Positions 11,811 through 51,993 of a DNA stretch of 64,000 bases are shown in pieces. The position numbers and the translations under genes are program-made. Location of the stretch: the NCBI GenBank assembly GCA_050575255.1, contig JBNZDD010013732.1:21090244-21154243 (forward strand), read 5' to 3'. This DNA is from Harriotta raleighana. Taxonomy: Eukaryota. The first letter of the stretch is position 1; the number at the start of each line of letters is the position of its first letter. Below the pieces are notes generated by a model that searched no databases, had not been told where the DNA came from, and saw only the letters and a list, made by a program, of their open reading frames with translations.

Positions 11811-14349
11811 GTGGTGGGGGAAAGGGTGGGTGATGAGTGTTGTGATGAGACATTCTGAGATGCCGCCCGGCGTGGGGGGGCGCCATATAAATGCAAGTTA
11901 TTGTTGTGTTTGGATGAAATTGAATTGGCCAAAGAGCCGCTTTGTCCAAGGCAATATTGGGATCTTGTGACTCAAGAAGCACCTGACTTGATAGTTGACG
12001 AAAGTATCTCCTTCACCACCATTGACTTCTCTCACCTTCATCAGAGAAGTCACAGCAAAAGAAAAACAATCTGTTTGTAATTGTGAAGAGAAAATACAAT
12101 CCCTTTGGGGGAAGAGATTTCAAGATTCTGCTCCAGCTAATCACTCCTTATTCCCTTGTGCCATACTTGGATATTCCCTATCTGACAGAACGCTTTGTTG
12201 ATCACTCTATTAGCAGTCACCAGGAGATGTTCAAAGGTGGCCAAACGTGACTCTATCTGTCTTCTCACTCCATCATTGGAAGGAACAACATGGGTTGCTT
12301 TTAAACTGTATGTCCATTAGACTAATAAATGGCAATTAGAGCCTCTTAAACCTAAATGATTTAGTTTAATAATCACAAAAAACCACTAATGTCTATAGCT
12401 ATTGCTGCAACTCTGTGACAAAGTCATATTTAGGTAGGATTTTCAGCTCCAATGCAACACCTAGGCGGCACTGAATTGTTGGCGATGGTGTCCTTTGGAT
12501 GAAATATTTAAATTACGTCTCATCTGCCCATTCAAGTGAATGGTAATGGTTGTATTCAAAAAGAGATGAAAGATTCTTGAGCCACCAATCTCCCCAGATT
12601 AAAAAGATGTAATTCGCTTCAAGGCTGTTTGTGAGACATTTCTGTGCATAAATTGTCTGCTTCATTTACCTCTCAATAAACAGTCAATCATTGCACAATA
12701 CAGAAAACTCTGAGGTGCTTTGAAATGAGTCCCAATATCTTTTATATTTTATAACCATCGATGATATTGCTCAATTTTACAGAGCAGAACTAAAAATGTC
12801 AGTAAGAGCATTTTTCTACGGTTTGACCTTGATTGATACGCCAGAAGGAAAGAAAGGTTTTTATAAAACCAGCTTTACTAAGAATAAACCAAATTAATTT
12901 GAGGTGATTATTAAACTGGCAGCTAAGTACAATTTTAAATCCCCTGTGCCGTTTCTATTTCATATGAGCTTGAAGTTGCTTCTCAGAATTCAACAGAGGG
13001 GGCAAAAGGGCTTTTCAGTGCCCTAGATAGAAAGTTCATTATCAGTTTAAAATAGCATAACTGCATACATTTAAGACTCTTATTCGAAACCACTGCATTG
13101 TTCTTTCTTAATGTATATAAACATAGATCATAATCTATGCTTGAGAGATGATGATAGAATCTTAATTTCCACAGTCCAGTTATGAGGCTGCCAAGAATCC
13201 TCACAAAAGTATGTTAAACATTAAATTTAGATAAGGATAACGCAGAATACTACTTCAGATCATCTCAAAGTAGGACAAGGAGACTTCAATTTTAAATAGC
13301 GCAGAATAATTTTAAAATTGATATTATAAAGAGCCTTTTCATTCGAAGACCCCCGCCATCCAGCTTCCCCTAACCCTGCCCACAGCTCAGGTCTGAAATA
13401 TTTTCTGTCCAGCACCTTAGGACAGCCTCCCAACGTGAAAGGTGCTATACAAATGTAAATTTGTTGTTGTTAAGTGTTTGGATCAAATTTTCTTGTAGGG
13501 TGATAGAGGCAAAAATAACAAGAGAAATGATGTTCCCAGTGACCCTGACCAAAACTCCCCGAAATGAAATTTGGCATCCACTCCATGGATGCTTTGGGGA
13601 CATTGCTATGCAAATTGGCTGCCGCGTTCATCTAACAAATGCACAGACATGACCCGATTGGAAAACTTTGCTTTGAGACTTTTCAACGTAATAGACGCTA
13701 TATCATGTGCAAGGATTATTATTTCTATTAACCACAGATTCGGCATTTCAAAGCTGTTGATGTTTCCCCATTTTGGTCAAGCAGAAATTTTATTTTGACC
13801 CTCAGTCCATCGAGTGTGCAGAGAAATACATAGATTGTATTGTACAGAGCAAGGAATAAGGTTTGTAGCATTCCATTGAAGAGAATATACTGCAAATTCA
13901 AAACAAATTAAATTAGCACACAATCATATTTATTGACCAAAGTCCCTGAGGATTTGAAACTCTCCACCCTGGTTTCAGCATATGAAAGCCCAGCTGTCAT
14001 GCAGCGTGTCCGTGCCCTTTAATACTGTGTGGGCAGGACAGTAGAATCATCTTTATCCGCAACAAGATTATCCCCATTCCAATTACTTCTCATAATTGGG
14101 AAGGCAAATAATCTGCTCAAATCCTGCATCTGTGACTTGCTTCATACCACCCTAACCTATCTGAAATGTACAACCAACTGCTTTCAACAGGCATTAAGAG
14201 ATAGCTCTAATTGAGACTTGTTGATTTGTTTTCCTCCACACCTTTCAAAGCAGTACTGCCGCAGTAACTCTGATACCAATTCCAATGGGCCTTTCTCACA
14301 AATTGTTTATTTAAGGTTAAAACTAAACTCAATCATGTCCCCACCTGAT

Positions 14350-14898
14350 AACAACAACAACAAAATTATATTTGTATAGTGCTTTTCACGTAGGGAGGAC
14401 ATCCCAAGACACTGGACAGTCAATGTTTCAGACCAGAGCTGGGGTTGGGATCGGGGAGGGTGGAGGGAAAGGAGGGGATTTGGGTAATGTCGAAGAGGAG
14501 GGTCTTGAGGTGGGATTTGAAGGAGGCTAGGGAGGGGGCGAGGCAGAGGGTCTGTGGGATGGAGTTCCAGAGATTAGGGTCAGAGTGGTTTAGGGCTCGC
14601 TGCCGATGGTGGGGTGGGTGGGTCGGGAAAATTGAGCAGGCTGGAGTCTGCTGATTGGAGGGAGAAGGCAGTTTGGTAGAGGGTTAGGACGTTGAAAGGT
14701 AGGGTGGGGTGAGTCCATGGAGGGCTTTGAGGATGAGGACCAGGATCTTGAATTGCATCCTCTGGGTGATGGGGAGCCAATGGAGTTGGGCAAGAATGGG
14801 GGAGGTGGTTTCACTGAGCATGAAGCAACAGAGGACATGGGCCACAGAGTTCTGGACGAACTGCAGCCTATGGAGGGAGGAATTGGGAAGGCCGACAT
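14350..14898 (-). mobile_element. L2-clade LINE 3' end (ORF2 C-terminus and tail)
   Basis: Minus-strand peptide LHRLQFVQNSVAHVL...PILAQLHWLPITQRMQFKILVL...ALHGLTPPYL and a (gtt)n tail. Confidence 0.9.
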
Positions 14899-14919
14899 GA
14901 TAACCATGCACTGTGGCTT

Positions 14920-15258
14920 AATAACAATAATAATTCCTGATATGGTGCCTTTTCAGCTCTTCTAGATGTCTCAAATTGTTTCACAGAATATATAGTGAAT
15001 TGACTATGGGTGAAATGTGGCAGCCAATTGTGCACAGCAGTGTCCCACAAACAACAACAAAATTACATTTATAGAGCGCCTTTCACATCGGGAGGACGTT
15101 CCAAAGAGTTGTGGATTGAAATGACCAATTATTTTTGAGGGATTGTTATTGGGCGTGTGGAGTAAGGAAATTTACCCAAGGTATTACCCTGCCTGGAATT
15201 GAAACCAAGTCTCTCACTTGTAAGGCAAGTGCTCTAGCAATTGAGCTACAGGACTCCA
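14920..15258 (-). mobile_element. tRNA-headed Deu-core SINE (antisense) with a short L2 tail inserted
   Basis: Head reverse complement ttgagctacaggactcc at the right end; core ggcagccaattgtgcacagcagtgtcccaca. Confidence 0.75.
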
Positions 15259-16828
15259 TAGGTCTTCTAGCAGTCCAATGGATAGTTTGCTGATCAATGG
15301 TTGCGGCATCATGTCTTAAAATAGCATCAGAGTTAGCAATTCCCTATCACCAGATATAGAGCACAATCTCACTTGCCAACAATAACAAATTACATTTGTA
15401 TAATCCTTTTCACATTGGGATGGTGTCCCAAGGCATTGATCACAAAACTAATATGAATCAAAATTAAATAATGATACACGAGTACCAAGAAAAACTCCCC
15501 TTTCAGGTAAATCTTTAGTCTTTCTTGTTCTACCACACTTCAATTTGTTGCATTTCATTTCTGGAAATATGCTTTGTGTATCTTTTTGGAAGAGCCTTGG
15601 CATCCAACACCTCTAATGAAGCCACTAATTTGTAAAACCATGTTTTTCTTAAAGCCCTCACAAATATAAAATACGCATACAAAATATGGTCACATTTTAC
15701 CGAAAATCCCGTAAAGCACTTTCAGACTTGCTCCTAATGTGAAAAGTGCTTTATCAAATGCAAGGATTATTATTTGAGTATTCCGTGAAGCATTTGCTTA
15801 TGATGTTGTGCTGGTTAAATGTTTGTCTTTAAATATTAATGTTGGATTTGGAAATGTGCAAAAATGTGTAATTCTATAAGTTAATGGCAGTTTTATTTTA
15901 AAATGATGCTTAACTATGTTTTTTTTTCTTTTGCCTTTGTCCTGCTTACATGCCTTCAAAGCTTGTTCCCAAGTAAGCAGAGTACACAGTTTGAAGAATT
16001 TTGATTAAATCAGGATTATTTTTTTCATTTAGAGGATTTTAAATCCCTGGCGTGTTTGATTGCATGAGCTTGCTCTTTGCATAGTAAAGACTTCAGAGCA
16101 AACAGCGGGCTTGTGATTTTCACAGCACTGCTCGTGTTGAATGAAGCCAGGCCAATACCGTGAATCCTGGAGATAGGTGTAAACAATGTGGAGATGACAT
16201 GTGTAGCTCCTTTATGGCAGCCCTAGATGTGAATGGCAATAGCCCATTATAGGTAGGCAGGTGGCAGGTTTGTTATTGACATAACTTCCTGGATGAGTCG
16301 AAAAGGAGATTATGTTATAATATCCTGATGGAAAATGGCTTTTAAAGCTCTGGTACATCAAAGATCATAGTCCCAGCTGTGCGAGGCTCCTGCTCTGCGT
16401 TGTGTTGTTATTTTAAACATTAAAAAAATCCCCCTGTGTTTACTGTGGTTCTCTCGCTGAGCACCACTGTCATCTGTGTTTAGCAGTTTGCATTAATGTA
16501 TTACCTGGCTCTACTGTGCTGAAACCACAGATTCTACAGTTTAGTCTTTTACCCACCTGGTAATACAAAAACATCACTCATCTCAAGGGGAATGGAATTA
16601 TGAGGCTTTTCTTTGTTGATCGGATTCCCTGGGTTCAGTAGTGCTATAGTAACAAGCAATGGAGGAAACCAGGTTGATAACGCAAAGGCTGTGAACTGGG
16701 AATATCATTAAACTCCAGGACTTAAAAAAAAAACTTTTAAATGTTGAGGGTTCTAATAACAGAACAAGGACACACTAAAACCACCCTGGTAGTTCTTCAC
16801 GGACCGAGCTGCTGAGTCCTCGAGAATC

Positions 16829-17042
16829 ATGATTCCGAGTAAGATTTTGGTCTACCGTGCTACAAATGGAGCCACGCGAACCGAGACCATGAGAAGCACC
16901 AGGAGACGTAAAAAATCCCTGGGCGACCTGTTCCAGAACGGATACCGTGTCAAAGCTGGTCACGGACACAATGTGGACAAAGAGGAGCAAGACAACTTTC
17001 AACATTCCATAGCCTCCTGCTATCGGATTGTATGTTACTGGG
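16829..17042 (+). CDS. Candidate alternative first coding exon of KCNMA1 (71 aa + G) that splices in frame to exon 6
   Basis: Two in-frame ATGs with purine at -3 (16829, 16889); in-frame TAG upstream at 16790; locally CpG-rich; donor TGGG|gtaagg in phase 1, matching the phase-1 acceptor of exon 6. Confidence 0.55.
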
Positions 17043-19303
17043 GTAAGGCAACTCTTTCAGCAGCGTTACAAAAGGTTACAAAGGAGAGTATGACTTTGCG
17101 TATGACTCTGTTACAATTTCTCTAACGAGTTGGGAAATGTACTGTTAATGGTGACATTGTCCGATGATGTTTTTACGATATCTCAGCAATTGCATTTTAA
17201 TCTGTATTTAGAAAGCCGTCAACAGGATTTGTTATTCAGTGAGTTTTGTTGAATACCAGAGGCTTGGAATGTGCTGTTAAATTTCAATTACAATCCGCGG
17301 CAAAACAATATATTTGTTTAACAGAATTTTCAAATTTGTGTTAGTGCTGGGAAATATTTCAGCATTACTTGATGTGATGTTTCTGACTATATTTTCAGAT
17401 TTTTCATTTTATGATTAAGGTAATAACTGAATGTTAAACAACTGACCAAATCTTGTTTATGATTTCCTCTCCACAGCTTTTCATATATATATATTATATA
17501 TATTTTCAATTATTCTAGTTTCATCCCAATATTTTTGTTTACTTTAACCATGAAATGCATAACTTCTGTCTGATCAGGACAGGAACAAAACTGATTTGCT
17601 TACATTTCTAAATGCTGAACTCTCTTCATGCAGAGTTTGCTGAAATGAACCAACTCAGAGAAGTTCCTTTAGTTCACAGAATAAACTGAAATGAAGTAGC
17701 ATTGTCTGGTTGGTTGCAGAACTAAATCTTTTGCAGTTTTCAAATGGTTAACAGCCTACGCATTAATTCAGAGCTATCTGCCCTTGTTTTCCATTGGCTG
17801 TTTGTGCAACATCAGACTGTTTTTAAGATCACTCTACTTATGGTCCCTTTAGGTTTGCAAGTCTAAAAATACTTCAAAATATTCAGGCCAGTGTATTTCT
17901 TAAGGCCAATTTATCAAACTATGAATGGGAGCTGCTGGCATTCCAGATCACATTGAATTTAAGCTGTGAATCGCAGGTCTGGCATAAATCCCTGATAATT
18001 TTGACTCTGCAACCAAGTGACATTTGTCCCATATTATTTGCTTAGAAATTTCCTATTGAGCTTCATGCTCAAGAACATAAGAATTTGCTGGGGAAAAAGA
18101 AGACCAAGGCCCATGAAGTTCATCTTCCACCATCCTGGCAGTTGCTTGACATGTCATGTCCCAAACTATACACTGTATCCTGAGATATTATTTTCTAAGA
18201 GAAATCTGAACCAATTTGATCTTCAAACATACTATCTTGATAGTTTTCTTGAAAGAATATGAGGAAAACAATATTTGGATACACTAATTTTTCTTTAATT
18301 TTTTAGTTCTTCTCTAGATTTGTTATGTGCAAGAGATTGTCATATGCATTATGGTGGTCACCTTTGGTCCTGGGATAATGTCAATGTACTGAGTGGATTG
18401 ATCTTAGCCTCGGTGAAAACTGGTGCCGCAGTAGTAGTAGCTTATAAATTTCATGTTAGGCTTCATTGTATCCTGACAGTATCATTTAGATATATGAGTA
18501 GCACGTCCGAGTTAGGGAAGGAAAAATCATCCTGTAGTTCTTTCTCCCAAGCAACAGGAGACTCCTGTTAGACAGGATCAATTTGCCCCCCTCAAATTGT
18601 GTTTTTGGAAGGCTTTAGCCATTGTGAACTATTTTCGATCAATGAGCACCTTTTGATCAAACAATCTAGCTTTCATATATTTTACTTATTTTTCATGTCT
18701 TCTCCTGGGAGGCTTGGAGAGTGTGAGGAGATTGTATGTGCGAGCATGAGTCATGAATTCTCCTTGATCACTCTGTCTATCTGATCTTACATAAGCTGTT
18801 GTTTGAACAACAAAGGTTTAGAAACTTGCCTTTGAATGCCCTTCCAATCTGAGATGTGCCCAGCCTCCTTATGATAGTCTCTTCAAATGGTCTGAAAATA
18901 AACTACAGTATACATTCATCTAGCTAAACCACAGGAGTGTCAAGTGTCGAGGCAGGCTTGAGTCAATGAAACATCCTGTGGTTCCAAGTCAAATATTGAA
19001 CAGCCTTGGGTGGAATTCCTATTCTTTGCATGTGTAGCAATATGATGCTTTTGTCAGAGCCTGTGGAGAGTGGACATGTTTAATCTTCACAGATGCAGCT
19101 TCGCATTAAGGGCCATAAGCTTACAGCCAGGCCTAGAGTCCGTACACAAATTGTATTTTCATTTGAAGCTTATTGCCCATCTCACCAGGGCACTGTTAAT
19201 ATGTAAATTACTAAAGTTCAATTTTAATATGCAAATCACTGAGGTCCAGCTATTCGTTTGAGTTCATAGTATAAAGAGTGACCTCACTGGTCTGACGTCC
19301 ATG

Positions 19304-19661
19304 ACAACAACAACAACAACAACAAACAGCAACAAAATTACATTTGTATAGCACCTTTCAAGTCGGGAGGATGCCCAAGGTGCTGGGCAGTCAGTGTTTC
19401 AGCTTCGGGATCAGGGAGGGTGGAGGGAAGGGAGGAGAAGGGAGCTGACGGATGACACTGGAGGAGGGTCTTGAGGCGGGACTTGAAGGAGGCTAGGGAG
19501 GGGGGTGAGAGGCAGAGGGATTGCGGGATGGAAGTCCAGAGGTTGGAGGCAGAGTGGCTGAAGGCTCGCCCATCGATGGTGTAGGGGGACATGGAGTAGG
19601 CTAGAGCCCGCTGAGCAGAGGGAGAGGACAGGTTGCAGGGGGTTAGGATGTCACAGAGGTA
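19304..19661 (-). mobile_element. L2-clade LINE 3' end
   Basis: (aac)n tail; minus-strand peptide GRAFSHSASNLWTSIPQSL...FKSRLKTLL. Confidence 0.85.
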
Positions 19662-19746
19662 CAATTCTCACTCCTAATATATTTTCCAATGATTCCTCCC
19701 ACAACCTGATACATGTTTATAATAATGGGAAGAATACAATGCTATA

Positions 19747-20533
19747 CAGTTAACCCTCGTCGAACGCGAATTTGTTGATTGCGAATTCAAGTGTATGCGA
19801 TGAAACAAAAGTATCACTTTTTTGTGCAGTGGTTGTAAAACCTGTGTATATGCGCTGGCTGGCCCCCGTGTGCATGCGCATGTGTGAGGATGCTGATAGC
19901 TCCCAACTAAATCTGATGATTCCTCGGCTGGCTGGCCTCACGCGCAATGCATTCTTGAGTAACTTTTAGATAATTCTTTGGCCTTGAAGCATCCTGATGG
20001 CATTGATGGTAAACAGAAGAGACAGAGAGAGAAAGAGTCTCCTAATAGTAATTTAGCCTAGCTGTGCTTTTATTGCTTTATTGCTTTCTTTTTATTGCTT
20101 TACTGCTTTGTTATTGCTTTATAGTGAGCTGTAACCTTTCTGCATCTCCTGTCCCGACCGCCTGCGGCTCTCTGCCCTCTGCCTGACCCTTCGTGGCTCT
20201 CTGCTCCCCCTCGCCCCCTCGTGGCTCCCTGCTCCCCCCCCACCCTTCTCCCCGATTTTTCTCTGCCTCCCTCCTGGGCACCCCCTGATTTCTCACTCCC
20301 GGGTGGTTGGGGAGACGAGAGCAGGAAGAAGGTAGCAGGGGGGAAGCAACAAGAGCGGGGAGAGGCGGGCAGAGCAAGGTGCGGGCCAGCCAGCTGTAGC
20401 CCGCCTCAGTATGTACCTTGCATTTGGATGTGCCTGGAGGCTTAAGGTGGGTACCTGCGACTGGATTCCCCTAAGCTTACATAACACAATTTTATTGAGT
20501 GCACAGTTTTCCATGATCGATGAGGGTTAACTG
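19747..20533. mobile_element. Non-autonomous Tc1/mariner-pogo (Tigger-like) element
   Basis: TA|CAGTTAACCCTCGTCGA ... TCGATGAGGGTTAACTG|TA terminal inverted repeats with a TA target duplication. Confidence 0.88.
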
Positions 20534-20537
20534 TATA

Positions 20538-23622: not shown

Positions 23623-23751
<129 letters not shown>

Positions 23752-30225: not shown

Positions 30226-30668
30226 TGCAATGAGCAGAAGTACAGCAGATTCGGCCCTCATTTCTACAGCATGCTGAGTGGGGGGGATCTAATATTTCTG
30301 TTGCCATATCAGTTGAGATCCTGGTCTATATGAATCAGTTGCTCATTGGACGAATATCCCAAGCCATTGGAGAAACTAATTACGTGCAAAATGAAACTTT
30401 TTGATGGGATTCCTGCTTCGATTATTCATATAGTCACATTAGGATGTTCTTTGAAGATCATCTGGATGGTCATTCACATTTGTGTTTTGTTAGTTTAGTA
30501 TCATTACTAACCTCATGTGACTGGTTAAGATGCAAGTGTCACTTTTGATGGTGAAAATGTTAGGATTTCACAAACTTTTAAATCTTTGACACATGGAGAG
30601 AAGCACACATATTGTGACCTTTCTACATTTTCACTCACATCACTTAATATTTTTCTTCTTTTGAACAG

Positions 30669-30744
30669 CAATTCTATCAAGCTTGTGAATCTGATCTCCA
30701 TATTTATAAGCACATGGCTAACTGCAGCTGGATTCATACATTTG
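30669..30744 (+). CDS. KCNMA1: KCNMA1 exon 7 (S4-S5 linker and S5): (S)[25 protein letters not shown]
   Basis: ttgaacag|CAATTCT...CATTTG|gtaagt; 76 nt; phase 2 in, phase 0 out. Confidence 0.98.
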
Positions 30745-31579
30745 GTAAGTACTCACTGTCAAAACAAGTTACCCAGGAGTGTTATTTCTCCTCAAAGCAG
30801 ACAGCTCCTTTCTAAATGTTCAGATCATTTAGTCTTCTCTACATTTCCATCTGAATTTTATTTTCCACAATTGTTTTGTCCTTCGTTTGAAAATCCTAAA
30901 TTATAAATTCAATAATTAAAGTCAAGTACAACATGAATGCTCAGGAAGTCTGTGTTAACCAAATTACCTTCAAAGGCATCAATCCTATTGTGGGGTTCAG
31001 ATGCCTTAAAGACTTTATTACAGTCATCTGAAACCTGCATTGCTACAAAAGGTTTGAAATCACTCCCATGAATTATTTTCGAGTGAATATTATGGAGTTT
31101 ACCAGAGGGGATTGGGCTTTTGGAAATTTTAGTAGAACACCTTTTGCTAATGCAGAGAAACCACATTTTAATGTAGTCATCTGGATCCAATATTAATTGT
31201 CTGTTTGTATAAAATATGATTTCAACTGCAATAAAGTTCCATGTATAATAAAAGTCAGAGCAAATACAGAGTAGTTTGTTCAGAATTTGCAAAATATGCA
31301 TGAAACAAAAAATCGAGGCTATGGTCTGGGATTGGTCCTTACCTACTTTGTTTGGATCTCACAAACCAAGTAAATCACTAACCCAGTAAGTAACTAACCA
31401 AGTAATTCACTGTTCTCTGGTCATTTTGTATAAGGAGTGAAATGTGTGTGTTGTGCCACTTGATGGCGCTGCAGTTATATCCCTGTCATAGGCCGCTCAG
31501 TGCCTGAAGAGTTCTTCTAAACTTCTACATTTATCTATTTTACTTCCCCTCTTCCCCCATTTCCCATTGTTGTTCATAG

Positions 31580-31819
<240 letters not shown>

Positions 31820-35500: not shown

Positions 35501-37678
35501 ACCATCTCCATTTTAAAACTGGAAATACCAAACTAGCAGGAAAAGGATGTCCCTCCTCTGTATTTGTACCACAAATCCCATTAAATATGGAAATACTCAG
35601 AAAATCTGAGATTGCTGCAAAGCAAAACATTGTCTTGTACTGTTGGAACCAGGATCTTTCCAACAACAGCCAAGCAGAAAGTGGTTTAGAACAGATCTCA
35701 GAGGATGTTTGTTCATAAGTAAACCGTGATCTTTAAAACTTGGAGATTAAAATAGTTTAGGTGAACAGTTTAGGTCAAGATGAGAAATAGAAATGTGCAC
35801 CTTTATCGTCCAGTGCCACCAATCAGACTCCCAAGTTATTATTCACTATTTTATTGTTGACTGGGTTATTAATTACATACCTGGTTGTAAGGATTACAAA
35901 GTGAATCATGTTCTGTCATCATACTTCTTTTTGGTAATGATGATTACCAAAGCCCACTTCCAGGTCATTTGCCATATTTTAACTTATAGTCCCGCACCCC
36001 CAACACACACAAACATTGATATTTTTTGAAAGGGGTAGAATTGCCCTTAACTTTGATAATACTCAGATTGTTTTGAGTGCAGATTTTTTTCCCAATTAAT
36101 ATTTGTTTTTCCAAACTGCGATTACGCAACCTAAATGTGTTCTTAATCTCTTTTACATTAAAGTAATCTTCTGGGAATTATGGAATTTTGGCTGTTTCTC
36201 ATTTAAAGAATAGTTATGAAAAAGCTTTCAGTTAATGCAGAAACCTCAGAAAACTGTGTTTAACTTGAATTGTTTGATAGTGGAAGATTTGAATTTTCCG
36301 GCTTTGTATGTGTACACATGTCACTGTAAGTAATCCATTGTGTGATTTGTTCTTTTTTAAGAAAATTATGTTTAGAAGATTTTTTAGTGCGGTTTCCTTC
36401 TATGTCCCTCTCCAACTGCTAACAAACACGTGGTTTGGGGTGCTCTACAGAGCCTGTATCCCTGGATGAGATGAAGCTAATTGTATAAAATTGGAATCTA
36501 AAACTTTTGGGGAATATTTTAAGTGTTGGAATGATGCATTCAAATTATTGGTGTGCTGATGCAGTCCATGTGTATCCTCTAAAGATATTATTTGAGGAAC
36601 ATTAATTCTTGTAAAACCTTAATCCTGAATTGGCACATTCAATTTTATAATAAGAGCTTAAGCCCACATAAACAAACTTCTGTTTGCCATACATCTAGGT
36701 TGGCCATTAGACACACTTAAAAGATTTTCCTAATTATAAACTCATCACACAAAAGTTCAATAATTTTACCAACTATCAGAGGATAACACTTTGTGACTTT
36801 TTCCAACTTATTTGATTTATGAAATGAAGGCAATATATATTTGCAAATCTATGTGCATTAAGGAGGCCTCAATGTGATTTTGTTAAGCACTGCTTGGTGA
36901 AGTTTCAAATGTGTATGGTGATGTTAAAACACAAGGGTAAGAAGAATGAATTGTGAAATTGTGTCAATTATGACTCATTGAAATACTAAAACCTCCTTAT
37001 TGAACTAGATGATTCCCCATATCAATCATTCAAAACTCTCATCCAGCTGCAGCTCTTAGAAGCAGCCTTCCATGGGCAATGTGTTTGTTGCAAAAAACAT
37101 GGCAGATAGAAATTTTCTCTCGACTACTTTTGCATTTTTTTTCTTTCGATGTTGAATCCTATTAGCAGACTTTTTGAACTTGTTTACATAATCAGCTCTG
37201 ACTGACTTTGGATTTTGATTTAACTTTGAAACATTATTCTGGTCAAATTTGTTTTTGTGGAACATTTTCCCGAATCTCACAAACTAAAATGGCATAAACT
37301 GTTCCAATCTCCTTAATCTCATTTGCTGTTTTAGTGGATGTTTTGGGTTTTTTGCTTTTAGCTTCTTTCTAAGATCAGTGCTGCAGCACTGCTACAGAGA
37401 AACTTTACAAGTCGATGGAAGTTTCAGAACCTAAATGCAAACCAAAAACGGAGTTCCAGTTTCTTTAGCTAAAAAACAGTTCCTCCCTCTTAGAAGCCTT
37501 TTTACTTTGTGAGTTCTAGTCTCAGCAGAGCCAAGTTTTTTTAAATTATGTAGATCTGACTAATTCTTTTACAATTTCAGATCTTAAGAATATCTTCTGA
37601 ACCTTAGAACACAGCACCCTCTCCCCCTCTTCAGCCTCTCTTTTTAGTCTATTCTTCTGTCTCCTATCTTCTTCTTAG

Positions 37679-37771
<93 letters not shown>

Positions 37772-37855
37772 TAAGTATCCCATGAGGCTCTACTGCCTCT
37801 GCTGCAGTAGAACACTCTCTGCATGCCATTCTCTTTTTCTGTTTCATGCATGTAG

Positions 37856-37947
37856 GCAATGTTTGCTCGCTACGTACCAGAAATTGCTGCTCTCATCCTT
37901 AATCGGAAGAAATACGGAGGGAGTTATAAATCAACTCGAGGCAGAAA
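37856..37947 (+). CDS. KCNMA1: KCNMA1 exon 9alt (mutually exclusive paralogue): [30 protein letters not shown](K)
   Basis: tgtag|GCAATG...GGCAGAAA|gtaagt; same length (92 nt) and phases as exon 9; open frame; 85-nt spacer intron. Confidence 0.95.
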
Positions 37948-40900
37948 GTAAGTCAAACTGGACAAGGTGTGGCTGTGTGACTTCTAGACCCTTGAATATT
38001 AACCTCTGATCCACGGAGAGAGAATATTTGGTTTTGCAGCGTGACATTAGATGTCGCGGCTAGGATTGTCACACCGTAAACAGAGACCATGACGAGGCAC
38101 ATGTCCCATTTGTTACATGTTTCCGTCAATGAATGCCTTGCTTTCTTTTCTAAAACAAAAACAATCCTGTTTTTTTGTTTTCTCAGCTTTTTCCATGGGC
38201 CGTCAGAGAGTTTTAGTTACCCTTATCTTTGGCAGTCACAAAAACCACAACATTATTACCTTAATTTTCTTGCAGTGTCAATCAATTTGATTTATTGCAA
38301 GATCCCATAATTATTTTTTAATGTTTATTCTGACCTTGCCAATCCATTCTTCCATTGCTCTTATATTTTTGTCTACTTCATTTCCTGCATGCAGTTTCTC
38401 CATGTTTCATTAAGATTCATGTGACTCTTCCATGGCAACAGTTTCAGGAGAATTTGCCAGACTCTTGTCTGTCGCCAAAGTTAAGTTCTTCAATATTGTG
38501 CTGCCTGAAAACTTGGCCCCAGTCTTTAGTTAAATCCCCAAGCCTCAAGGCCACAATTCCCAGACTGTAGGTTCCAAAGTACTATTGGCTTTCTTTAAAG
38601 CCTCTGGCTTGGACAGGCATTTTGTTCGTACCTAGTCAATGTTTGTTGCTTCTGCTTCATGTTGTTTCTGTGGATCACCTCAGATTCCTCAATCCCACCC
38701 TAATTAAAACTCAGCTCTTTCATCAGCACACAAAAAGCCTGATGGAGTTAACATTCCTTATCTACAGCTCTTAATTTATGATCAAAGCAATGTTTCTTTT
38801 AAGATCCTCACTGGTTTAGGCTGTTTACCAAAATGTGAAAGACAATGTGAAAGTCAGCATCCGTCATTTTTTAGCGTTGTTTTTCCCATTAGCAAGTTTA
38901 GACTGATGAGATGTTATGTTTTGGCCAACACTTTGATTTTTGTTTCGAATCTTGCATTGAGAGAATCCATTGTCAGAGCTCCCCGACTTGTCGATAAGAT
39001 CTTGTGGTATCAAGATCCTGCTTTTGCATTGCTTCTACTACAGCTGGCAAATATGTCTTCTGGCAGTAGCCGTGACGGCTGGCTATAGTTTCATTGTTTC
39101 AGATGCAGTGATTTTTTTTAAATGAGGATAAAAAGTTAATGTATTATGGCATTTTATAAACTTTCCAACTGTCTAATTTTAATATGCAGAACTAAACATG
39201 AACCTTCATTTTCCCACAAGGGCAGTGTCCAAACAAAAACTAAAATAGCTTGTGGTTCCTGGTTTGTTAACTGTCGTTTTTAATAACTGAGAGTGACAGT
39301 GAAATAAAACATACAATCATTTTATGCAATTGAACTGCCATGCGTCCAACCCATTCTAGCTGTTTACCAGTTACGCACATAGTGGTAAATAGGACTGCAT
39401 CTCCTCTTTCAGCCCTATTAAGAAAAGCTTTTGAAATCCTGAGGAGGTGCAGTTGTGATCACAGGGATAGTGGAGGGAGTGAAACAGCCAGAGCCATTTT
39501 TGTCAGATTGATATCTCATGCTGCAGTGTGCCTAGGAATAAAACAATTGTCATATTCTAGTGCTTGGCAAAGGTAGGCACGAGGTTTGCCATGCGCTGCC
39601 ACTTGAACAATGACAGTGGGAGCAAAGGCACAAGGATTAGAGCAGTAGACAAAGGTATGGTGCTGATGCTGGAGCTGTTGTTTACTCGTAATGCTCTATG
39701 GGATCTCTGCTGCATGGCTACATTTGCACGGTCGTTACTGGAACCCTGGGTTTTCCTATTTTGAGGGCTTTCTGTATCTTTTTATTTGCCTTCTCTATGA
39801 TATAATGTGTTTGAACAATGTCTGATTTCTGTTATAAATTTTGTGGGAATAAGCAATTTCAGATATATTTTGGGTTTTGACAGGAATTTTAGGCACTTGT
39901 GAAACTGAAGACTAATCTTGGCAACCTAGAGCAGTCCATGAATGTTTCTCAGATCACATACATTTCACCTCTCCTCCCTTGCCTACCGCCCACCCCCCAC
40001 CACTGCCAAAAAGAAAAGCTTGGTTGGGACATATTCACTGTGTATTGACAAACAATTTTGAATGTAGCAAGTCAAAAGGTTGGCATGAGTCATATAACTG
40101 CTATCCCTTCTGACCATCGGGAAATCCACAAAAAGACGCCTCCTGGAGTTGAACCTTAGCATTATCAGGATCCGAGTACAATGGGAACAATGGGAACACC
40201 TAAGTGATATCACATATTCAGCATCAGACTGCAAAGGTTTGGAAATCATTCCCCTTCGGGGGTGGGGGAAAACATGTTATTGTTTGGATTGATTTTTAAA
40301 ATACTTGACAAGTATTGGGGCCTCCATCTCCAGCCCACTAATGGCTGACTGTCATTTATACTGTCTGTTATTACCCGTTAGTGGCCATACACAAAGGAGC
40401 ATTTTCTCCACATTGCTGCAGGAGTGCATGGAAATGGCTTTGTGTATGTGCAGGAAAACATTTTAAAATGGGGCCTATTGCATTTCTTTTTCATCAATCC
40501 TATATTCAGACACATCAGGCTTTCAGCCATGATGGTGCATGTAGTCAGTATAAATATCTTGTAGTTTGTTTTAGCAAATATTTTATTTATGTATTTTTTC
40601 AATGTAATCCTTTTCTTAGCTGAATCACTACTAATGATCCCATGTATTGATAATTGCACAGCTATCCCTGGTGCAAGGAAGATGGTGCAAAGTGCATTTT
40701 GGCTGCATACAGTAGCTACATATCCAATATCTAATTGACGTTTTAATTAGACAATTCAGGAAGATTCAATGAGAGGCAGCCTGGATAGGTGTCAATATAA
40801 CAAATATTGATCTTCAGCATTATATATCAACAGTATAGTTACTTACTGGCCTCTATGATGCTTTCATCTAGGGCAGAATGGCTCTCTTTTGGGGGGATGA

Positions 40901-43575: not shown

Positions 43576-43704
<129 letters not shown>

Positions 43705-43856
43705 TAAGTAAAAAAGCTTGATTTACAGAGTGTAACGCCAAATCAGAAATACCAAAGAAAGATGCCCATCTTGCTATGCTCTGTTCCACCATCAGTTTAA
43801 GTGGGATGGACAGAGACCCTGACATCCTATCCCTGAGTAAATCTCAAAACATAATA

Positions 43857-44628
43857 CAGTAAAACCTTGTTTATCCGTGACTCGATGAACCGGAAAACCC
43901 GTTCAACCGCCACCTCAAAAAAAGTCCTGATTCGATTAACCGTAATTTATCCAGCAAATAGTGATGATACATTTAATGAATGGACTGTTGCAAGCGAGTG
44001 CAGTACTCGCAGTTGGCCACTAGGCGTGTCTAAACTGGTGAGATGCTCAGAGCCCTGGGCAGCAGCCATTTTTACAGGTGAGAGAGGGACACCCACACAC
44101 AGATAGAGAGACAGACACAGATAGAGAGACACACACACAGAGAGAGAGAGAGACACACTNNNNNNNNNNNNNNNNNNNNNNNNNNNNNNNNNNNNNNNNN
44201 NNNNNNNNNNNNNNNNNNNNNNNNNNNNNNNNNNNNNNNNNNNNNNNNNNNNNNNNNNNNNNNNNNNNNNNNNNNNNNNNNNNNNNNNNNNNNNNNNNNN
44301 NNNNNNNNNNNNNNNNNNNNNNNNNNNNNNNNNNNNNNNNNNNNNNNNNNNNNNNNNNTTACTTCGTTCGTTTTTATCTGCAATGGAAACTCACACATAG
44401 TTATGCTTGTCGAAGCTATTACAACACAGAAGTTGCTACTTTGGTCGATTTAACCTAAAATAGGTCATGTGAGGGCTTCGATTGCAAATTGAAGTGTAAA
44501 TAAAAGTACTAATATTCTGTTGTTATTTAGTCTTATTAATATGTTTTTTTAATTTTAAAAAAATCCATTCAACCGGAAAAATGGTTTAACCGCCACTGGC
44601 CAGGTTCCATAGGTGGCAGGTTTTACTG
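43857..44628. mobile_element. pogo/Tigger-like MITE spanning a GA/CA microsatellite and an assembly gap
   Basis: TA|CAGTAAAACCT ... AGGTTTTACTG|TA; same family as 2800-3188. Confidence 0.8.
44160..44358. other. Assembly gap (199 N)
   Basis: Run of N next to a (GA/CA)n microsatellite at about 44090-44158. Confidence 1.
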
Positions 44629-45668
44629 TAGTAAGATAAGATGTGAAAAGCGCTATAAGAAATGCAATGATTCTATTATTATTGTATTATTGTATTCTCA
44701 TTTGAACAAAGTACTATCAATGGGACAAAACAGTTCTCAAAGTTATGGCCTCATGATTAAGATACTGCTTTATCTTAATTTAAGAATTAAACCTGGGAAG
44801 TCTTTGAGTTGTCATGTTATTGTGATTGTAATGTTGGCCAACGGCAACGATTGAATTAATGTGAACACTGATGACTTCATTTGTTACCTGTGGTTCCAAT
44901 CATCCGTTCTGCTGGAGTAACACAACAGCAGGGGATAGTTGCAAACTAATCTCAGCAGCATCTCTAATTGCTATTTATCTAATCTGAAATGTGGACAACA
45001 ATTATGTGTAGAAAGGAATTATTCTGCTTTATCTATTTTCCCACAAGGCACAACAACCCCCAAACAATTCATACCCCTAAAAATCTTATCTGTACACATG
45101 GACTAGTAGACATTTTATGTTTTGGAAGGCTCTATAGCCCATCCTGCCTGCATTGGTAGTAAGAGTTGAACTGGAAGACAGACTTGCTAAACTAAAGATG
45201 TAATTTTCCCCTTAGGACCCTGATATTTATCGGTAAGTTTTAGTCTTGGCTTTTGAAGTAAATCCCCAAGTGAGCACATAAAGGGCACAAGGGAATTTGT
45301 AAAATAGGTTGTGTGAAATTTATTTCTGCTATTTACCGAGCAGAATATAGCATACACTAAAGCTACAAGAAGATTGTAAATAAAAGTACATAATGTAAAA
45401 ATAGTTTGTGGAAACGCGGTCCGCTTTATTGAAATTGTATTCCTTATTGCCCTGTAAATTTATATTATCTATATGATGCAATTAAATGTATAAACAGGAA
45501 TGAGATTTTGCTATAATCTGAAAGATTTGTGGGCAAATTGGATTAAATATGAATTTCAGTTGGGTAGACTTTTCTTCTAAGGGTGACATTGCTTTATGTA
45601 CTCTAATGCAATCTCCATATTCTTACAGAGTGTACTGATCAACAACTTTGCAATCTTGTTTCCTTCAG

Positions 45669-45774
45669 TGTTTCCCCTAACCTTGAGCTAGAAGCCCTTT
45701 TCAAGAGACATTTCACTCAAGTGGAGTTTTATCAAGGATCTGTGCTCAACCCTCATGATTTAGCCAGAGTGAAG
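45669..45774 (+). CDS. KCNMA1: KCNMA1 exon 11 (RCK1; E399): (N)[35 protein letters not shown]
   Basis: ccttcag|TGTTTCC...GTGAAG|gtaaca; 106 nt; phase 2 in, phase 0 out. Confidence 0.98.
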
Positions 45775-46815
45775 GTAACAACTGCAGGCTTCTTTCGTTA
45801 TGTGTGTATATATGAACATTTTACTGTAGTACATTTATTATTTTTTATCTTAGAATGTAGAAATATTGCTCCAGTTACTGGCTTAATATCTGCTCTTTTT
45901 CAATCTCTCCAAAGATCTTCTGGTTTACTTTGTACTTATCACTAGATGCTTTTTGTTTCAATAAACTGTATAGAACACATAGCATGCCATGTGGAAGAAC
46001 CCAGTATCATTAGAATTGTTATTCCCCAGAAACGGTTCTATTCTCACAGTTCAGATGATCTACAGGGTGAGGAAGGAGGAATACAGAAAAGAAGGGGAGA
46101 GGGAGAGTCGAAATTGGCTAACCTGCAAAATACATCTGGATATATTTAAGATTTGTAACATTTTGACTAGGTTTTGTTTCAAGAATGCATTGTTGTATAT
46201 ACAATTAAATGTGGTTGTTGAATACACAAGAATAGAAACACAGTGAGGTTGAAAAGTATGTCACGCATGAACTATTTGGGCTAAAATGACAACACGTAAT
46301 ACTAGAAACATTGTAGTAGCAGAAAAAATGAGCTCCAGTGGAATTCTGGAATTTAAGGAAGAAACCAGCCGAAACTGTTGAAATAAAATTCTCCTCTGTC
46401 TGATTAGTGTGAATTTGAAGTAGTTAAATTCTAGGTCACCCTCAGGATAGCTGTAGCAAAGGAAGGTATTTTCCTGAGGTGGGCAGAATGGAGGAAGCTT
46501 TGATTCTTGTTTAAATGTATTATCTGAAACTTTTACTGGTTGTATATATATATATATATATCTGGTGGGGATAGTACTGTTTCATTTGTTCCCTCTATGG
46601 CGTTTTTTCTTGTCTGAACATATTAAAACTTTTTCCTTGGATAAAAGGTATATACTTCTTTAAAAATCAAATTTTTCTTAAAGCATCAATTTATTGTAAA
46701 TGACGATGTTCGGTAAGGATGTTTGAGTCTGTAACATATTAGTATATTATTTTTAAATCTGCTCTCCATCTGCTTTGCCACTTTTCACTTGCTCTTTGTG
46801 TTTCCCACATCTCAG

Positions 46816-46898
46816 ATAGAGTCAGCAGATGCCTGTCTTATTCTGACTAATAAATACTGCGGAGATCCTGATGCAGAGGATGCATCCAACATTATGAG
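46816..46898 (+). CDS. KCNMA1: KCNMA1 exon 12: [27 protein letters not shown](R)
   Basis: atctcag|ATAGAG...ATGAG|gtaaat; 83 nt; phase 0 in, phase 2 out. Confidence 0.98.
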
Positions 46899-46946
46899 GT
46901 AAATGATGATTTATGAAGGCTGAACCCCCAATATTTCCTGTTCATT

Positions 46947-47092
46947 CAATCAATCAATCAAAATTACATTTATATAGTGCCTTTCATGTCGGGAGGACAT
47001 CCCAAGGTGCTGTACAGTCAAGGAGGAATCAGAGCGGGGGAGAGGGGTCGGGGGAAGGAAAGTAGGAAAAATTGACTATATTTGTGGGAAAA
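46947..47092 (-). mobile_element. 3' part of a Deu-core/L2-tail element with a (gatt)n tail
   Basis: (caat)n caaaattacatttatatag...gggaggacatcccaagg; same family as 50412-50645. Confidence 0.75.
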
Positions 47093-48016
47093 ATATCATT
47101 CAATATTCACAGGAATTATTCAAATACATGTTTGTTAATTGAGAGATTTCTCAACTTTGTTTTGTGAGTGCAGAGATTGTATATGTGTGTGTGAGGTGGG
47201 GGTGAGGCAGAGGGTGGCGGGGGGGATGAAATTCTTCTTGACGCTGAGTGTGGGTGACTTTGAGGAATGTGTGCTTAGAATGGGAAAACCCCAATAGAAA
47301 ACATTCAAACCAGTCAAGTCATTGAACACAGTAATGAAAGGAATTCCCTGTTTTATATGTTTGGAACTCTCAAAGTTATTCTACTGACAAACCTGGATTC
47401 AAGATTTGACAAATAAAAAGGTTAGGTGGTAACAAACATGCATGTTAAAAGGCTGTAGAATGCAGAAGGGAAAGAACAGTGAAAGAGGTAAGGATATCCA
47501 TAGCTTTAAGATCCTGGGAAAGAACAAGTTGGAATGAGTTTTGATACCAACACAATGATTATACAGGATGTAGGAGATCTGCTTTTGATGCTTTGGCGAG
47601 GAATCCCAAGAGTTGTACATTTCAAACTCAATGTGTTGCAACTCATGAAAGGGACACCTTCCTTATTTGTGTTTCCTTTGAAATGTAGTTTGCAGCTGGA
47701 CTGTTATGACTTGATCCACATCCTGCTTCTCAGGAAAATTTTGTTAAATTGCTTTCACATTTACTGTACATAGGTACATTTTCCAAATTGTTCTTATTTT
47801 CTGTCTTTGAATATTCCTGATGTATTTAAAAGCTCTGATTGCCTCGATGAATGGACATTTCATCAAAATATTATTTCAAAAAGCCTCAAACCGCTGATAG
47901 ATGGTATGGAAATTGAGTCTTGTTGGGGATGTGAATTTCATTCAGTGTTTTAGCTAAAGCATATGTTTTTTTTCGAAAAGCATCCAGATCTTAATAAATG
48001 TTTCTTTCTCATTTAG

Positions 48017-48086
48017 GGTAATATCCATCAAAAACTATCATCCAAAGATAAGAATCATTACGCAGATGTTGCAGTATCACAACAAG
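48017..48086 (+). CDS. KCNMA1: KCNMA1 exon 13: (R)[23 protein letters not shown]
   Basis: catttag|GGTAATA...AACAAG|gtcagc; 70 nt; phase 2 in, phase 0 out. Confidence 0.98.
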
Positions 48087-48874
48087 GTCAGCGCACTTTT
48101 AATTGTATTTATCTGCTCAGATTTGTGTTTGGAAATATCTAAAAAATATTTGCCTGGTTTTTAAAAATTCTAAAGTTGAACTTATTGAACACACCACCTT
48201 ATTGACACCAATGTCTTCGCCCTTAAATTCCCTTCACTCACTGGCACCTCTTGAACTCTATCTTCTGCTACCCTACTCGTCTGCTTGTCACTGCAGCTTA
48301 GCGACCACAGCTACCAATACAAGTTGCCAATACAGCTACCAATGCAGCGTTCCAGAGAGTTGTTGCTGTTGGTTGATGTTTAGTAAAATGCCATTTCAAC
48401 CACGTCAACAATTGTTTGGATGCCAGTTACATAAAATCTATGTAAATTTCTTGCCTCCATCTTCTGTACAAAGTGTTCCTGACCTCGACTGTTCCACTGC
48501 AGGAATCCCTGAACAGATGCTTTGAAATACCCTAAGAAACCTTTCAAAGTCACTCACAATTATTAGCACATTATAGACCAGTGCTAAGATGTAGCTTCTT
48601 AATCTGCAGTCATTACCCAAAAAATAGGAATTATCTACCCCTTTCAAGGGAAACGTTTGTGCTGAACTCTGGGGTTATTATTGAGCACTTTTTGCAAGCA
48701 ACTGATTTGTATTCAGAACTTGCACTATAATCACGCAATGAAAGATTGACTACAGCTGACAAACAGCACAGGATAATATCTATTCCTAGTTCCAATTTAG
48801 GAATAATTTTGAAAAATTGGAAGATATTTGGCTAACTGGAAAGTATGTGCACAACTACCGCATGTGCATAAAAG

Positions 48875-49392
48875 GAGTTCTATAGCTTGGTGGTTACAGC
48901 ACTTGCCTCACAAATGAAAGACCTAGGTTCTATTCCTGGCACAACAAAATGTTGGGCAAGTTTCCTGCCTCACATTCCTCTGTTTACCTAGCAATGAGTA
49001 GGAACCAGGTTGTTAGTTGATTGGCAGATCATTTTTCCAGTGATAATAATCCCTAAAAAAAAGTGGGCACTCAATCCATGACCTTCTGTGGGACACTGCT
49101 GTGTGCAATTGGCTGTCACATTTCGCTCACAAATATACAGTAAATTCATTTTACTTTTCAAATCAGGAGGATGTCCCAAGGCTCTGGACAGTCATTGTTT
49201 CAGACCTGAGCTGGGGTCGGGATTGGGGAAGGTGGAGGGAAAGGGAGGGATTTGCGGTGACTGAGGGGACAGTCAAAGAGGAGGGTCTTGAGGTGGGATT
49301 TGAAGGAGGATAGGGAGGGGGCAAGGCGGAGGGTCTTTAGGATGGAGTTCCAGTGAAAAGCATTGTATCAAATGTAAGGATTATTATTATTA
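48875..49392 (+). mobile_element. Deu-core SINE interrupted by an antisense L2 3' fragment (about 49150-49352)
   Basis: tRNA-like head ggagttctatagcttggtgg, core gtgcaattggctgtc, tail aaatgtaaggattattatt. Confidence 0.75.
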
Positions 49393-50411
49393 CAGCTAGC
49401 AGTTTGCTGGTAATCATGATTATGATTTTCTGATGCTCCCTTTCCATTCACCCTCCAAAGAAACTTTGGCGCTGTAGCATGCAATTAGATTTAATCATCT
49501 TAAAACAGAAACACAACACTCGTGTTTTGCTTTTACACATGTTTCTGAGGAAGTGTTCCCTGGAGCCACTTGCTATTCATTACTTGTGGAAGCCATTATC
49601 TCCCTGGGCTCATATCACAGAACATGGCATTAAATGAAGCACATACAGCAATTTGTATTTCGTCCTTTCACGTTGGGAGGACGTTCCGAGGCGCTGGACA
49701 GACAAAATTCTGGACCCGAGCTGAGGGTAGGGATTGGGGAGAGTGGAGGGTAGGGTGGACGGTCAGTGTGGCTCTACCATGTGAATGCTATGGCTAAATA
49801 GATAATTATTTTTAAGGAATATGACTTCCTGAGAATTATCGCATTGTTTCAACTAGTCCCAGGCTATCTACAGATATTTCTATAACATCTATTCACCTGC
49901 CAGCATTGGCAACTCTCACCTTGATTGGGAAAACTTCAGATGAATAAGAAACAGCATTGTAGCAATACTTTTCTGTAGTGCACTGAAAGGAATCAGAACA
50001 AAAGTGTGAGATCAGAGTGCGAGGACACCAATGAATTTAACTTGTTTCTGACCAGTGTTTTAAACCCCAGCTCTTATTCATTTTCACGGTAAAGCTCACA
50101 GGCAAAAAAAATTGTATCTGGTCAGCTGGGTGTCTGACACATGTGGAAACCCATCAAGAGTATCCAAACCAAGCTGAGAATTCCATACATCCCACCTACA
50201 CATGGAAATTCCAGAGATAAATTGTTGGAATGGAATGCGCACTCTCCCAGGAGGGATACATCCTGCTTACCTAATTCTTAGGCACAGGTAAACAAGAGCC
50301 ATGGCTTGGGAACACCAGAGTGTGCGTTGGGGTATGCTAAAACTGCAAAGCTTGTCCTTAAGGTGACGTAAGGCCCAGAATTCCTCCCAGTCAAATTCTG
50401 TGTCATGGTAG

Positions 50412-50645
50412 AATCAATCAAAATTACATTTATATAGTACCTTTTACTTCGGGAGGATGTCCCAAGGCGCTGTGCAGTCAAGTAGGGGTCAGAGCGAGGG
50501 TGGGAGGGGTCGGGGGAAGGAAAGTATGAAAAATGGACTATATATTTGTGGGCGAAAACGCGGCAGCCAAATTGCGCACAGCAGTGTCCCACAAACAGTC
50601 ATGGAAGTGGGGTTAGGGGAGAAAGGAGGGAAAGATGGCGATTAG
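50412..50645 (-). mobile_element. Deu-core element with L2-type tail and (gatt)n end
   Basis: Contains gcggcagccaaattgcgcacagcagtgtcccaca with CpGs retained; reverse complement of 59420-59651. Confidence 0.8.
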
Positions 50646-51684
50646 AAATCTAGTTCTTCAAAAAGTCTGACTTACAAGTTGAGACTAAATTTAAAGAATT
50701 TTCCACAACCTGGGGTCTTTGTTTAGAAAAAATGCTTTGGCAGCCTAGTGAGGCAGAATTTGAGGCCTCCAGTTGATTGGCTAGCAAGTTTATTGATTGG
50801 TTGGTGAATTTTCACCATTTTTTTTTCTGTGAGGCTTTGCTTAAGAAGCAGAGGCTGTTTGAAACAGTTGCTTTAAACAATGCAAGTATTGTTACTTCAA
50901 TAGTGCCTGAAGCCAACACATCACACCAGTGAAACTAAGTGTCTTGCCTCAGTGTGTGCACTGATCTTTGAGATTGTTAAAGGATAAATTAAATTATTGC
51001 TGGGTAAATGAACATCATGGAATGCAATTGTCTGCCAACTCCTAATAAGTTTCTCAACACAACATTGTTTTGTGTTCGATTGCTGGGGAATGAGTCAAAT
51101 AGAGGCGTGAAAGTGGCTCAGATCTGAGCTTTCCTTCCACAACAATTTAAGAAAAATGTTCTGTTGCACATCTTACTTTGCCTTTGTGGACCTAAATGTG
51201 TTTATTTTCCTCTAATGGGCATTATCGCAATACCACTAACAGAGGTGGCTCAAGCTGATTTTATTACTGTATTCAGATTTTGCATCCAATTTCACCTTAT
51301 ATTATAAAAATACATCTTACTTTTAAAATCCAGATGCACACTACAGGTTGGTTGATTAAGCACTGTCAGTTCCAGTACAGTGTGAACAGGATGCAAAATT
51401 TATGTTTCTTACAATGAATGTGCTGAAGCTACCCTACAGCTTTGCAGCTCATTCAGGACAAAAATTCTTTGTCGGCATTTTTTGTATTAATAATGATAAA
51501 TAAAACAAAACATTTAGTGCATAAGATCTGAGGTGCTCAGGGGAGTCCACAGATGAATTGACAACAGATGTGAATACAGATTTAACTGCAGAATGTTGGT
51601 GTGTGGGTTTTCAAGTGCGTCTTGTTGCAAAAAGATTGCAAAGAAAAACAAAGATGCTTATTCTGATCCCATCAACCATTGTGA

Positions 51685-51993
<309 letters not shown>

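Follow-up and report, generated by a model that had tools for sequence, protein, structure and literature searches.

A conserved exon within intron 5 of KCNMA1 is a likely alternative first exon for a BK channel subunit without S0–S3

The BK channel, whose Slo1 alpha subunit (S0–S6, RCK1, RCK2) is encoded by KCNMA1, is the textbook voltage-plus-calcium channel, and its known variants retain the voltage sensor. Alternative first exons that give truncated K+ channel subunits are known from other genes, such as the one that yields KCNQ1 isoform 2. In KCNN3 an alternative first exon likewise produces an N-terminally truncated subunit, SK3-1B (PMC10543433; here and below, papers are cited for the excerpts of them that bear on the point), and the prokaryotic two-helix channel MthK combines a pore with a Ca2+-binding RCK ring in the absence of a complete voltage sensor (PMC5677106). 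Here we analyze a 64,000-nucleotide stretch of the genome of Harriotta raleighana (hereafter the window; contig JBNZDD010013732.1, positions 21,090,244 to 21,154,243 of the forward strand) that covers part of KCNMA1, and in which a first-pass annotation had proposed a hidden, in-frame alternative first exon ahead of the exon for S4. Sequence comparison indicates that this exon is real, coding and conserved across jawed vertebrates, from cartilaginous fish to human, and it likely acts as an alternative first exon whose 71-residue leader would replace S0–S3.

The exon consists of 71 codons and the first base of Gly72, and it sits about 26 kb into the 33-kb intron 5, 6.6 kb ahead of the S4 exon (Table 1). 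The end of exon 5, with the phase-1 donor G/GTAAGT (the slash marks the splice site), lies about 9.4 kb ahead of the window (L033:587). The S0–S1 linker and S1–S2 exons were found further upstream in the same genome, in which the canonical Slo1 exons are present from the S0–S1 linker to S3. The in-frame TAG (16790), the ATG (16829), the second in-frame ATG (16889) and the 71-residue translation all lie where the first-pass annotation had placed them, and its donor at 17042/17043 is in phase 1 with the acceptor of exon 6, which begins after cacag/ at 23675, so that the exon 5 donor, the leader donor and the exon 6 acceptor all share phase 1. In the predicted spliced product the leader goes straight into S4: S0 and a complete S1–S4 voltage sensor are absent, and the K+ filter, S5–S6, RCK1 and RCK2 of Slo1 are all retained, the remaining gating-ring exons lying downstream of the window. 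The leader exon and its flanks are single-copy in the genome, with one match each, both as DNA and as protein, which rules out a repeat-derived exon. An origin from exon 5 was also ruled out, as leader and exon 5 gave no alignment at E<=100; the resemblance that had been seen between their junctions (YWG and WLG) is superficial and amounts to a shared split Gly codon and a Trp in a different register. Three findings had been named in advance as fatal to the exon (no orthologue, a broken frame and a match to a repeat); each was looked for and none was found.

A search with the 71-aa frame matched 34 proteins among 99 candidates, with E values down to 7e-29, and a profile search gave 45 matches among 7584 longer candidates; by these scores, the similarity of the leaders is far beyond chance. 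When the profile was run against 1.84 billion representatives, 57 matches were obtained at E<=0.001, of which 55 are the leader or part of it. The remaining two, long repetitive proteins with multiple weak stretches, were taken as spurious. The leader is carried by more than 35 named species, among them manta ray, lungfish, many teleosts, lizards, birds, platypus, bats, rodents, apes and human, at 36–76% identity to the window leader, and orthologues occur in both teleost paralogues as well as in ray, lungfish, reptiles, birds, platypus and placentals. Because this largest search returned no named jawless or invertebrate match, there is weak evidence that the leader is absent from those groups. 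A tree of the leaders (36 rows, 71 columns, with many forks open) follows species relationships, contains two teleost sets, places the window beside Mobula (98/95) and puts the three most diverged profile matches among teleost sequences. The leader has no Pfam family and no relative in the PDB (best E 0.39).

From 136 stored proteins we extracted 126 leaders, 98 of them distinct; the ten proteins dropped at this step were two unrelated sequences and eight partial or differently joined models. Since the extraction pattern demanded Met, Leu7, Gly38 and the last Trp, the invariance of these positions follows in part from the pattern itself, which made no demand at K29 or S30. An unfiltered alignment of 35 sequences shows L7, V8, Y9, K29, S30, L34, G38, Y39, R40 and W71 to be invariant. 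Leader length is 70 or 71 in 80 of the 98 distinct leaders, and the leaders share one layout: a few hydrophobic residues at the start, a linker that varies in sequence but not in length, RRRKKS, a conserved block (G-[DE]-L-F-x-x-G-Y-R-V), a charged spacer that also varies, and then a predicted amphipathic helix (residues 49–70). The basic motif singled out by the first-pass annotation proved to be the most conserved part of the leader, with K29 and S30 in 99 of 99 aligned rows and RRR.K near-invariant; counted by position, Ser occupies residue 30 in 86/98 leaders, [RK][RK]xS occurs in 96/98 and RxRxxS in 63/98, motifs that we take to be the kinase consensus sequences relevant to S30. The pair of juxtamembrane cysteines pointed out earlier fared unequally: C64 is conserved (81/99 rows) but C69 is not (10/99), and at least one Cys lies within the last 14 residues in 92/98 leaders. 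The second ATG, corresponding to Met21, is private to the window (1/99 aligned rows).

At the DNA level, the window was compared with three orthologous loci, one bird-like (L035) and two teleost-like (L036 and L037). All three begin with ATGATT and end with CTGGG/GTAAG, as does the window donor, and in-frame stops occur 5, 14 and 30 codons upstream with no Met in between. Differences between the window and L035 are distributed 13/13/43 over the three codon positions, the proportion of nonsynonymous differences (pN, 0.17–0.40) is lower than that of synonymous differences (pS, 0.72–0.91) in 6/6 pairs, five of which are saturated, and omega is 0.13 in the single unsaturated pair. This pattern indicates that the leader exon is under purifying selection. 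More than half of the distinct leaders (60/98) are unspliced genomic read-throughs that continue W-[GSC]-K, that is, with the donor read as codons, and 37/98 are spliced to S4 sequence. In P0078, P0116, P0122 and P0125 the last exonic base before the donor is altered (W-S or W-C instead of W-G) and the phase is kept. Several mammal-like genomic open reading frames (P0025, P0027, P0032 and P0084) are open for 75–150 codons upstream of the leader Met, a stretch that is absent from the fish and bird loci.

These data bear on the idea that the exon is conserved for something else, perhaps a soluble fragment or a short peptide made without splicing, or that it is decaying in mammals, the long isoform being a by-product. 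The greater divergence of mammalian leaders (47–59% identity to the window leader), motif changes in some rodents and the fact that several mammalian leader models are partials of 332–460 aa would fit such an explanation. However, changes of the last exonic base (W-S-K, W-C-K) leave donor and phase intact, the read-through tails past the donor are unrelated in sequence and in length (27, 5, 3 and 16 codons), and full-length leader models exist in mammals (Ictidomys, Myotis and platypus), which makes this explanation very improbable.

The predicted junction of a new N-terminus to S4 is the one found in public gene models (Table 1), and the exon is therefore not hidden: it is already annotated in predicted isoforms of many species and in a partial human model. 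Among 52 stored proteins in which the leader continues into S4, 50 start at the leader Met, which is also where conservation sharply begins, and in the Mobula model the leader is followed by the Pfam domains Ion_trans, RCK and Slowpoke_C. No acceptor position is shared upstream of the exon, the open phase-1 AG lying at −20 in the window and at −2 in both L035 and L036, with none in L037; the window's candidate acceptor is a GAG with a weak pyrimidine tract. The exon is thus very probably the first coding exon. Were it instead a cassette spliced between exons 5 and 6, about 75 residues would be inserted into the S3–S4 loop of a full-length channel. The common phase of the three splice sites and the phase-1 AG in three of the four loci would permit this, and the exon is internal in gene models of Gymnothorax and Danionella and in a Prochilodus partial, all labeled 'hypothetical protein', which count against a first exon. 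But the acceptor position is not conserved, its only candidate in the window is weak, conservation and nearly all spliced models begin at the Met, and the basic, phospho-type motif would become extracellular; we regard the cassette as scarcely credible.

The human model is partial, skips an RCK1 exon and looks like a single-transcript annotation. Long-read re-annotation has increased the GENCODE KCNMA1 transcripts from 24 to 91 (PMC6889285), and the human leader transcript may stem from that work. Low-numbered isoforms start with the leader in Protopterus (X2, P0041) and Labeo (alpha-1-like X1, P0061), which means either that upstream exons are unannotated or that the short form is dominant for that gene copy. 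Full-text searches aimed at the leader isoform, its motifs or its precedents, over a collection with few subscription papers and no supplementary tables, found no paper describing it; long-read or promoter atlases may list the isoform in their supplements. The gene section of a 2023 review places three start codons in exon 1, describes four sites of splicing and mentions no internal first exon (PMC13674577); a methylated region reported at the KCNMA1 'first exon' comes with no internal start (PMC9138340), the main text of PMC13429693 does not mention KCNMA1, and the excerpts of PMC11659587 that deal with KCNE6 constructs contain nothing on the leader isoform. The channel, itself well known, has here a real and ancient variant that is annotated but seems not to have been studied.

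An element upstream of the ATG, to which its conservation suggests a regulatory role, is the strongest candidate for an internal promoter or enhancer. It aligns with L035 at 81% over 69 nt (E 6.5e-11) and with L036 at 80% over 55 nt (E 1.8e-7). The corresponding alignment scores of 69 and 55 compare with control maxima of 30 and 31 (70 tiles) and with 22–26 in the downstream intron. One-base indels in the alignments show that the element is non-coding; it is single-copy and has no Rfam match. One teleost copy (L037:2000-3000) keeps the exon without the element that the other copy has, a possible regulatory divergence of the teleost duplicates. The first-pass annotation had seen a promoter sign in a CpG island instead. 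The window is indeed CpG-depleted (observed/expected 0.30), and the 14 CpGs in 16800–17024 exceed the number in any other 226-nt stretch, though only by a little (the runners-up have 12 and 11), but 11 of them lie in the coding part (16829–17042), five of these at codon position 1. The 300 nt upstream of the window ATG contain only 5 CpGs at 41% GC, the orthologous loci have 7, 5 and 11 CpGs, and no enrichment upstream of the start was seen in any of the four loci (3–7 CpGs per 300 nt, 36–41% GC). Because the CpGs fall in the coding part, are few upstream and vary among orthologues, the cluster is not a conserved promoter island.

The leader has neither a signal peptide nor S0. Its maximal 19-residue hydropathy is −0.19, with no membrane-spanning segment, and its net charge is +7, as compared with hydropathy values of 1.7–2.0 for S5 and S6 and 1.05 for S4. 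AlphaFold predicted the helix at residues 49–70 with a block confidence (predicted local distance difference test, pLDDT) of 66–75, the whole model scoring 60.7; the helix has a hydrophobic moment of 0.45 (shuffle p 0.025). A model of the full-length lungfish isoform had a pLDDT of 27.5 and was discarded. In having a hydrophobic stretch followed by a basic one, the N-terminus is loosely reminiscent of inactivation ball peptides, and a basic signal carried on a flexible linker is likewise suggestive of targeting to the inner nuclear membrane.

With a probability of roughly 0.45, we favor the reading that the short BK subunit is modulatory and acts in mixed tetramers, which would have fewer voltage sensors and auxiliary sites, would be more Ca2+-gated and would be controlled through S30. 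The short transcript would be driven by an internal promoter located in the conserved element or close to it. Given that it has no transmembrane segment and a net charge of +7, the leader would stay cytosolic, with its last helix, which may be palmitoylated at Cys64, lying along the inner leaflet. S4 would then either sit at the membrane interface or pair with that helix in a short hairpin. Because S5-P-S6 and both RCK domains are intact, the short subunit could enter tetramers with full-length subunits, whose voltage and auxiliary-subunit control would be weakened by co-assembly, and phosphorylation of the invariant serine of RRRKKS would likely switch trafficking or partner binding. With every short subunit that it contains, a tetramer would lose one voltage sensor, half of one Mg2+ site and one face for the docking of gamma/beta, and would keep its Ca2+ sites. 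If Slo1 residue numbers are assigned to exons as we presume, the short form loses D99, D153, R167, N172 and D186 and keeps R213. D99 and N172 make up half of the inter-subunit Mg2+ site, D153, R167, D186 and R213 are sensor residues, and the layout of Slo1 is non-domain-swapped (PMC5677106), so that a subunit without a sensor could in principle take its place in a tetramer without stripping its neighbor's pore. The contacts of beta4 are on S0, S1 and S3 and also on the pore helix and S6 (PMC6934384), and those of gamma1 are on S0, S0–S1, S2 and S3 (10.1101/2023.11.01.565197), so that the short form would lose the whole gamma1 face and much of the beta4 face.

Besides the three models in which the exon is internal, several points weigh against such a subunit. 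RefSeq 'isoform X' models are usually based on RNA-seq but can borrow from homologues, and the evidence for splicing consists of other species' gene models, which may be partly copied by homology. The upstream element was not found in L037, and five upstream ATGs lie between element and start in the window (5 and 8 in orthologues), so that either the true start site is closer or translation is damped. S4 is only weakly hydrophobic (1.05), and the subunit may therefore misfold; to our knowledge, BK without S0 gives no current on its own. In mouse bladder muscle, BK protein was reported to be 'essentially completely gone' after inactivation of exon 2 (PMC4673641), from which it follows that the short form is at most minor there, if it is present in Mus; no Mus-named record was seen among the leader carriers.

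The same features can be read as those of a dominant-negative subunit of the SK3-1B type, in which the pore and RCK regions bind full-length subunits and the Arg-rich leader holds the complex in the endoplasmic reticulum, so that surface BK is lowered until S30 is phosphorylated. The KCNN3 precedent, in which the truncated channel is dominant-negative (PMC10543433), agrees with this, as are the near-invariant RRR.K and the lack of any signal peptide or S0 to set topology. By contrast, simple suppression does not obviously explain why the hydrophobic start, the G-[DE]-L-F-x-x-G-Y-R-V block and the Cys-containing helix are conserved, and we find this reading doubtful.

Rather than modifying other subunits, the short subunit might assemble with itself into a tetrameric K+ channel of MthK-like layout that is gated by Ca2+ and depends little on voltage. 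Such a channel may work in cells without main promoter activity or in an organelle membrane to which the basic motif would target it. Its pore and both RCK domains are complete, MthK has served as the pore-plus-RCK template for Slo1 (PMC5677106), and the leader sequence and the spacing from Met to RRKKS have been fixed for about 450 million years, beyond the need of mere truncation. The lungfish X2 and Labeo X1 models that start at the leader also agree with it, but may merely reflect incomplete annotation of upstream exons. On the other hand, S4 is kept and must be accommodated without S1–S3, and as opening is controlled by S4/S5 contacts and by the state of the sensor (PMC9750137), the pore may be stuck shut or open. 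It is unlikely, though conceivable, that the same gene gives jawed vertebrates a further type of BK channel, a Ca2+-gated tetramer without voltage sensor, with a promoter to itself and a targeting leader regulated by phosphorylation. This channel would escape gamma and most beta subunits, would still be made in mice with exon 1 or exon 2 knocked out and could underlie some organellar or non-excitable-cell BK activity. The modulatory subunit in mixed tetramers remains the reading that we prefer.

Table 1. Features of the KCNMA1 region in the window and public gene models that carry the leader
Feature	Position in window	Strand	Remark
Conserved non-coding element	16288..16370	+	about 460–540 nt upstream of ATG; candidate internal promoter or enhancer
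In-frame TAG	16790..16792	+	13 codons before ATG 16829
Coding part of alternative exon	16829..17042	+	71 codons and first base of Gly72
Basic motif RRRKKS, residues 25–30	16901..16918	+	S30 = candidate phosphorylation site
Predicted amphipathic helix, residues 49–70, with conserved Cys64	16973..17038	+	directly before S4
Phase-1 splice donor GTAAGG	17043..17048	+	G/GTAAGG at 17042/17043
KCNMA1 exon 6 (S4), phase-1 acceptor	23675..23750	+	
S4–S5 linker/S5 exon	30655..30750	+	tblastn limits, approximate
Pore exon with TVGYG filter and start of S6	31580..31753	+	approximate
S6/C-linker exon, two tandem versions (about 37676–37770 and 37856–37948)	37676..37948	+	
RCK1-region exons near 43591, 45667, 46816, 48015 and 51778	43591..51942	+	
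XP_072138824.1 (Mobula X7)			predicted KCNMA1 isoform, same exon and junction to S4
XP_043911727.1 (Protopterus X9)			predicted KCNMA1 isoform, same exon and junction to S4
XP_049666003.1 (Accipiter X18)			predicted KCNMA1 isoform, same exon and junction to S4
XP_040128822.1 (Ictidomys X26)			predicted KCNMA1 isoform with leader; known as cluster member
KAI2556381.1 (human, 460 aa partial)			leader exon joined to S4
PNJ40466.1, PNI75289.1			predicted KCNMA1 models with leader N-terminus

The two tandem S6/C-linker exons presumably correspond to the known mutually exclusive exon 9/9alt pair, and the leader model of Aplochiton carries the alternative version. Dense interspersed repeats lie on either side of the exon region (14300–16100 and 19300–23100), and a read-depth table shows 16170–18070 to be low-copy in the genomic DNA of a relative, whose reads over intronic sequence differ at about 5–7% of letters. 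The same genome contains a compact paralogue of the Slo family with short introns (G000:C13069:23902-49747; L009, L012, L020, L025 and L032), 41–70% identical per exon and likely KCNU1/Slo3, and no leader was found in its intron 5 of about 0.7 kb. The BK C-terminal exon has two equal 54% matches 5.7 kb apart on the small contig C11694 (G000:C11694:3755-3970 and 9497-9712; L018 and L019), reflecting either a local duplication or an assembly repeat.

A natural form of BK without S0–S3 that has persisted for about 450 million years, and in both of the teleost duplicates, would offer a ready test of the role of the sensor in assembly and Ca2+ gating. In the mouse, null alleles have been made by targeting exon 1, exon 2 or the pore exon (PMC4673641); those in exon 1 and exon 2 would spare the short isoform and that in the pore exon would not, so that differences between the lines would become interpretable. 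C-terminal antibodies and probes would probably fail to separate short and full-length forms, and in KCNMA1 channelopathy the interpretation of human variants in the leader exon, or of truncations that lie upstream, would change.

The leader can be set beside several known elements. The STREX insert is a palmitoylation switch with a basic stretch near cysteines. Like the leader, gamma1 has a polybasic stretch near the inner leaflet (10.1101/2023.11.01.565197). Unlike the exon that gives SK3-1B, the KCNMA1 exon supplies a sizeable leader under strong conservation, and its use would take away most of the voltage sensor. MthK resembles the short BK form in layout only, the latter being made of Slo1 sequence, with tandem RCK1–RCK2, a retained S4 and a vertebrate-specific leader. 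Finally, the canonical Slo1 alpha subunit is a product of the same gene, with identical S4, pore and gating ring, from which the short form differs by its 71-aa basic leader in place of S0–S3.

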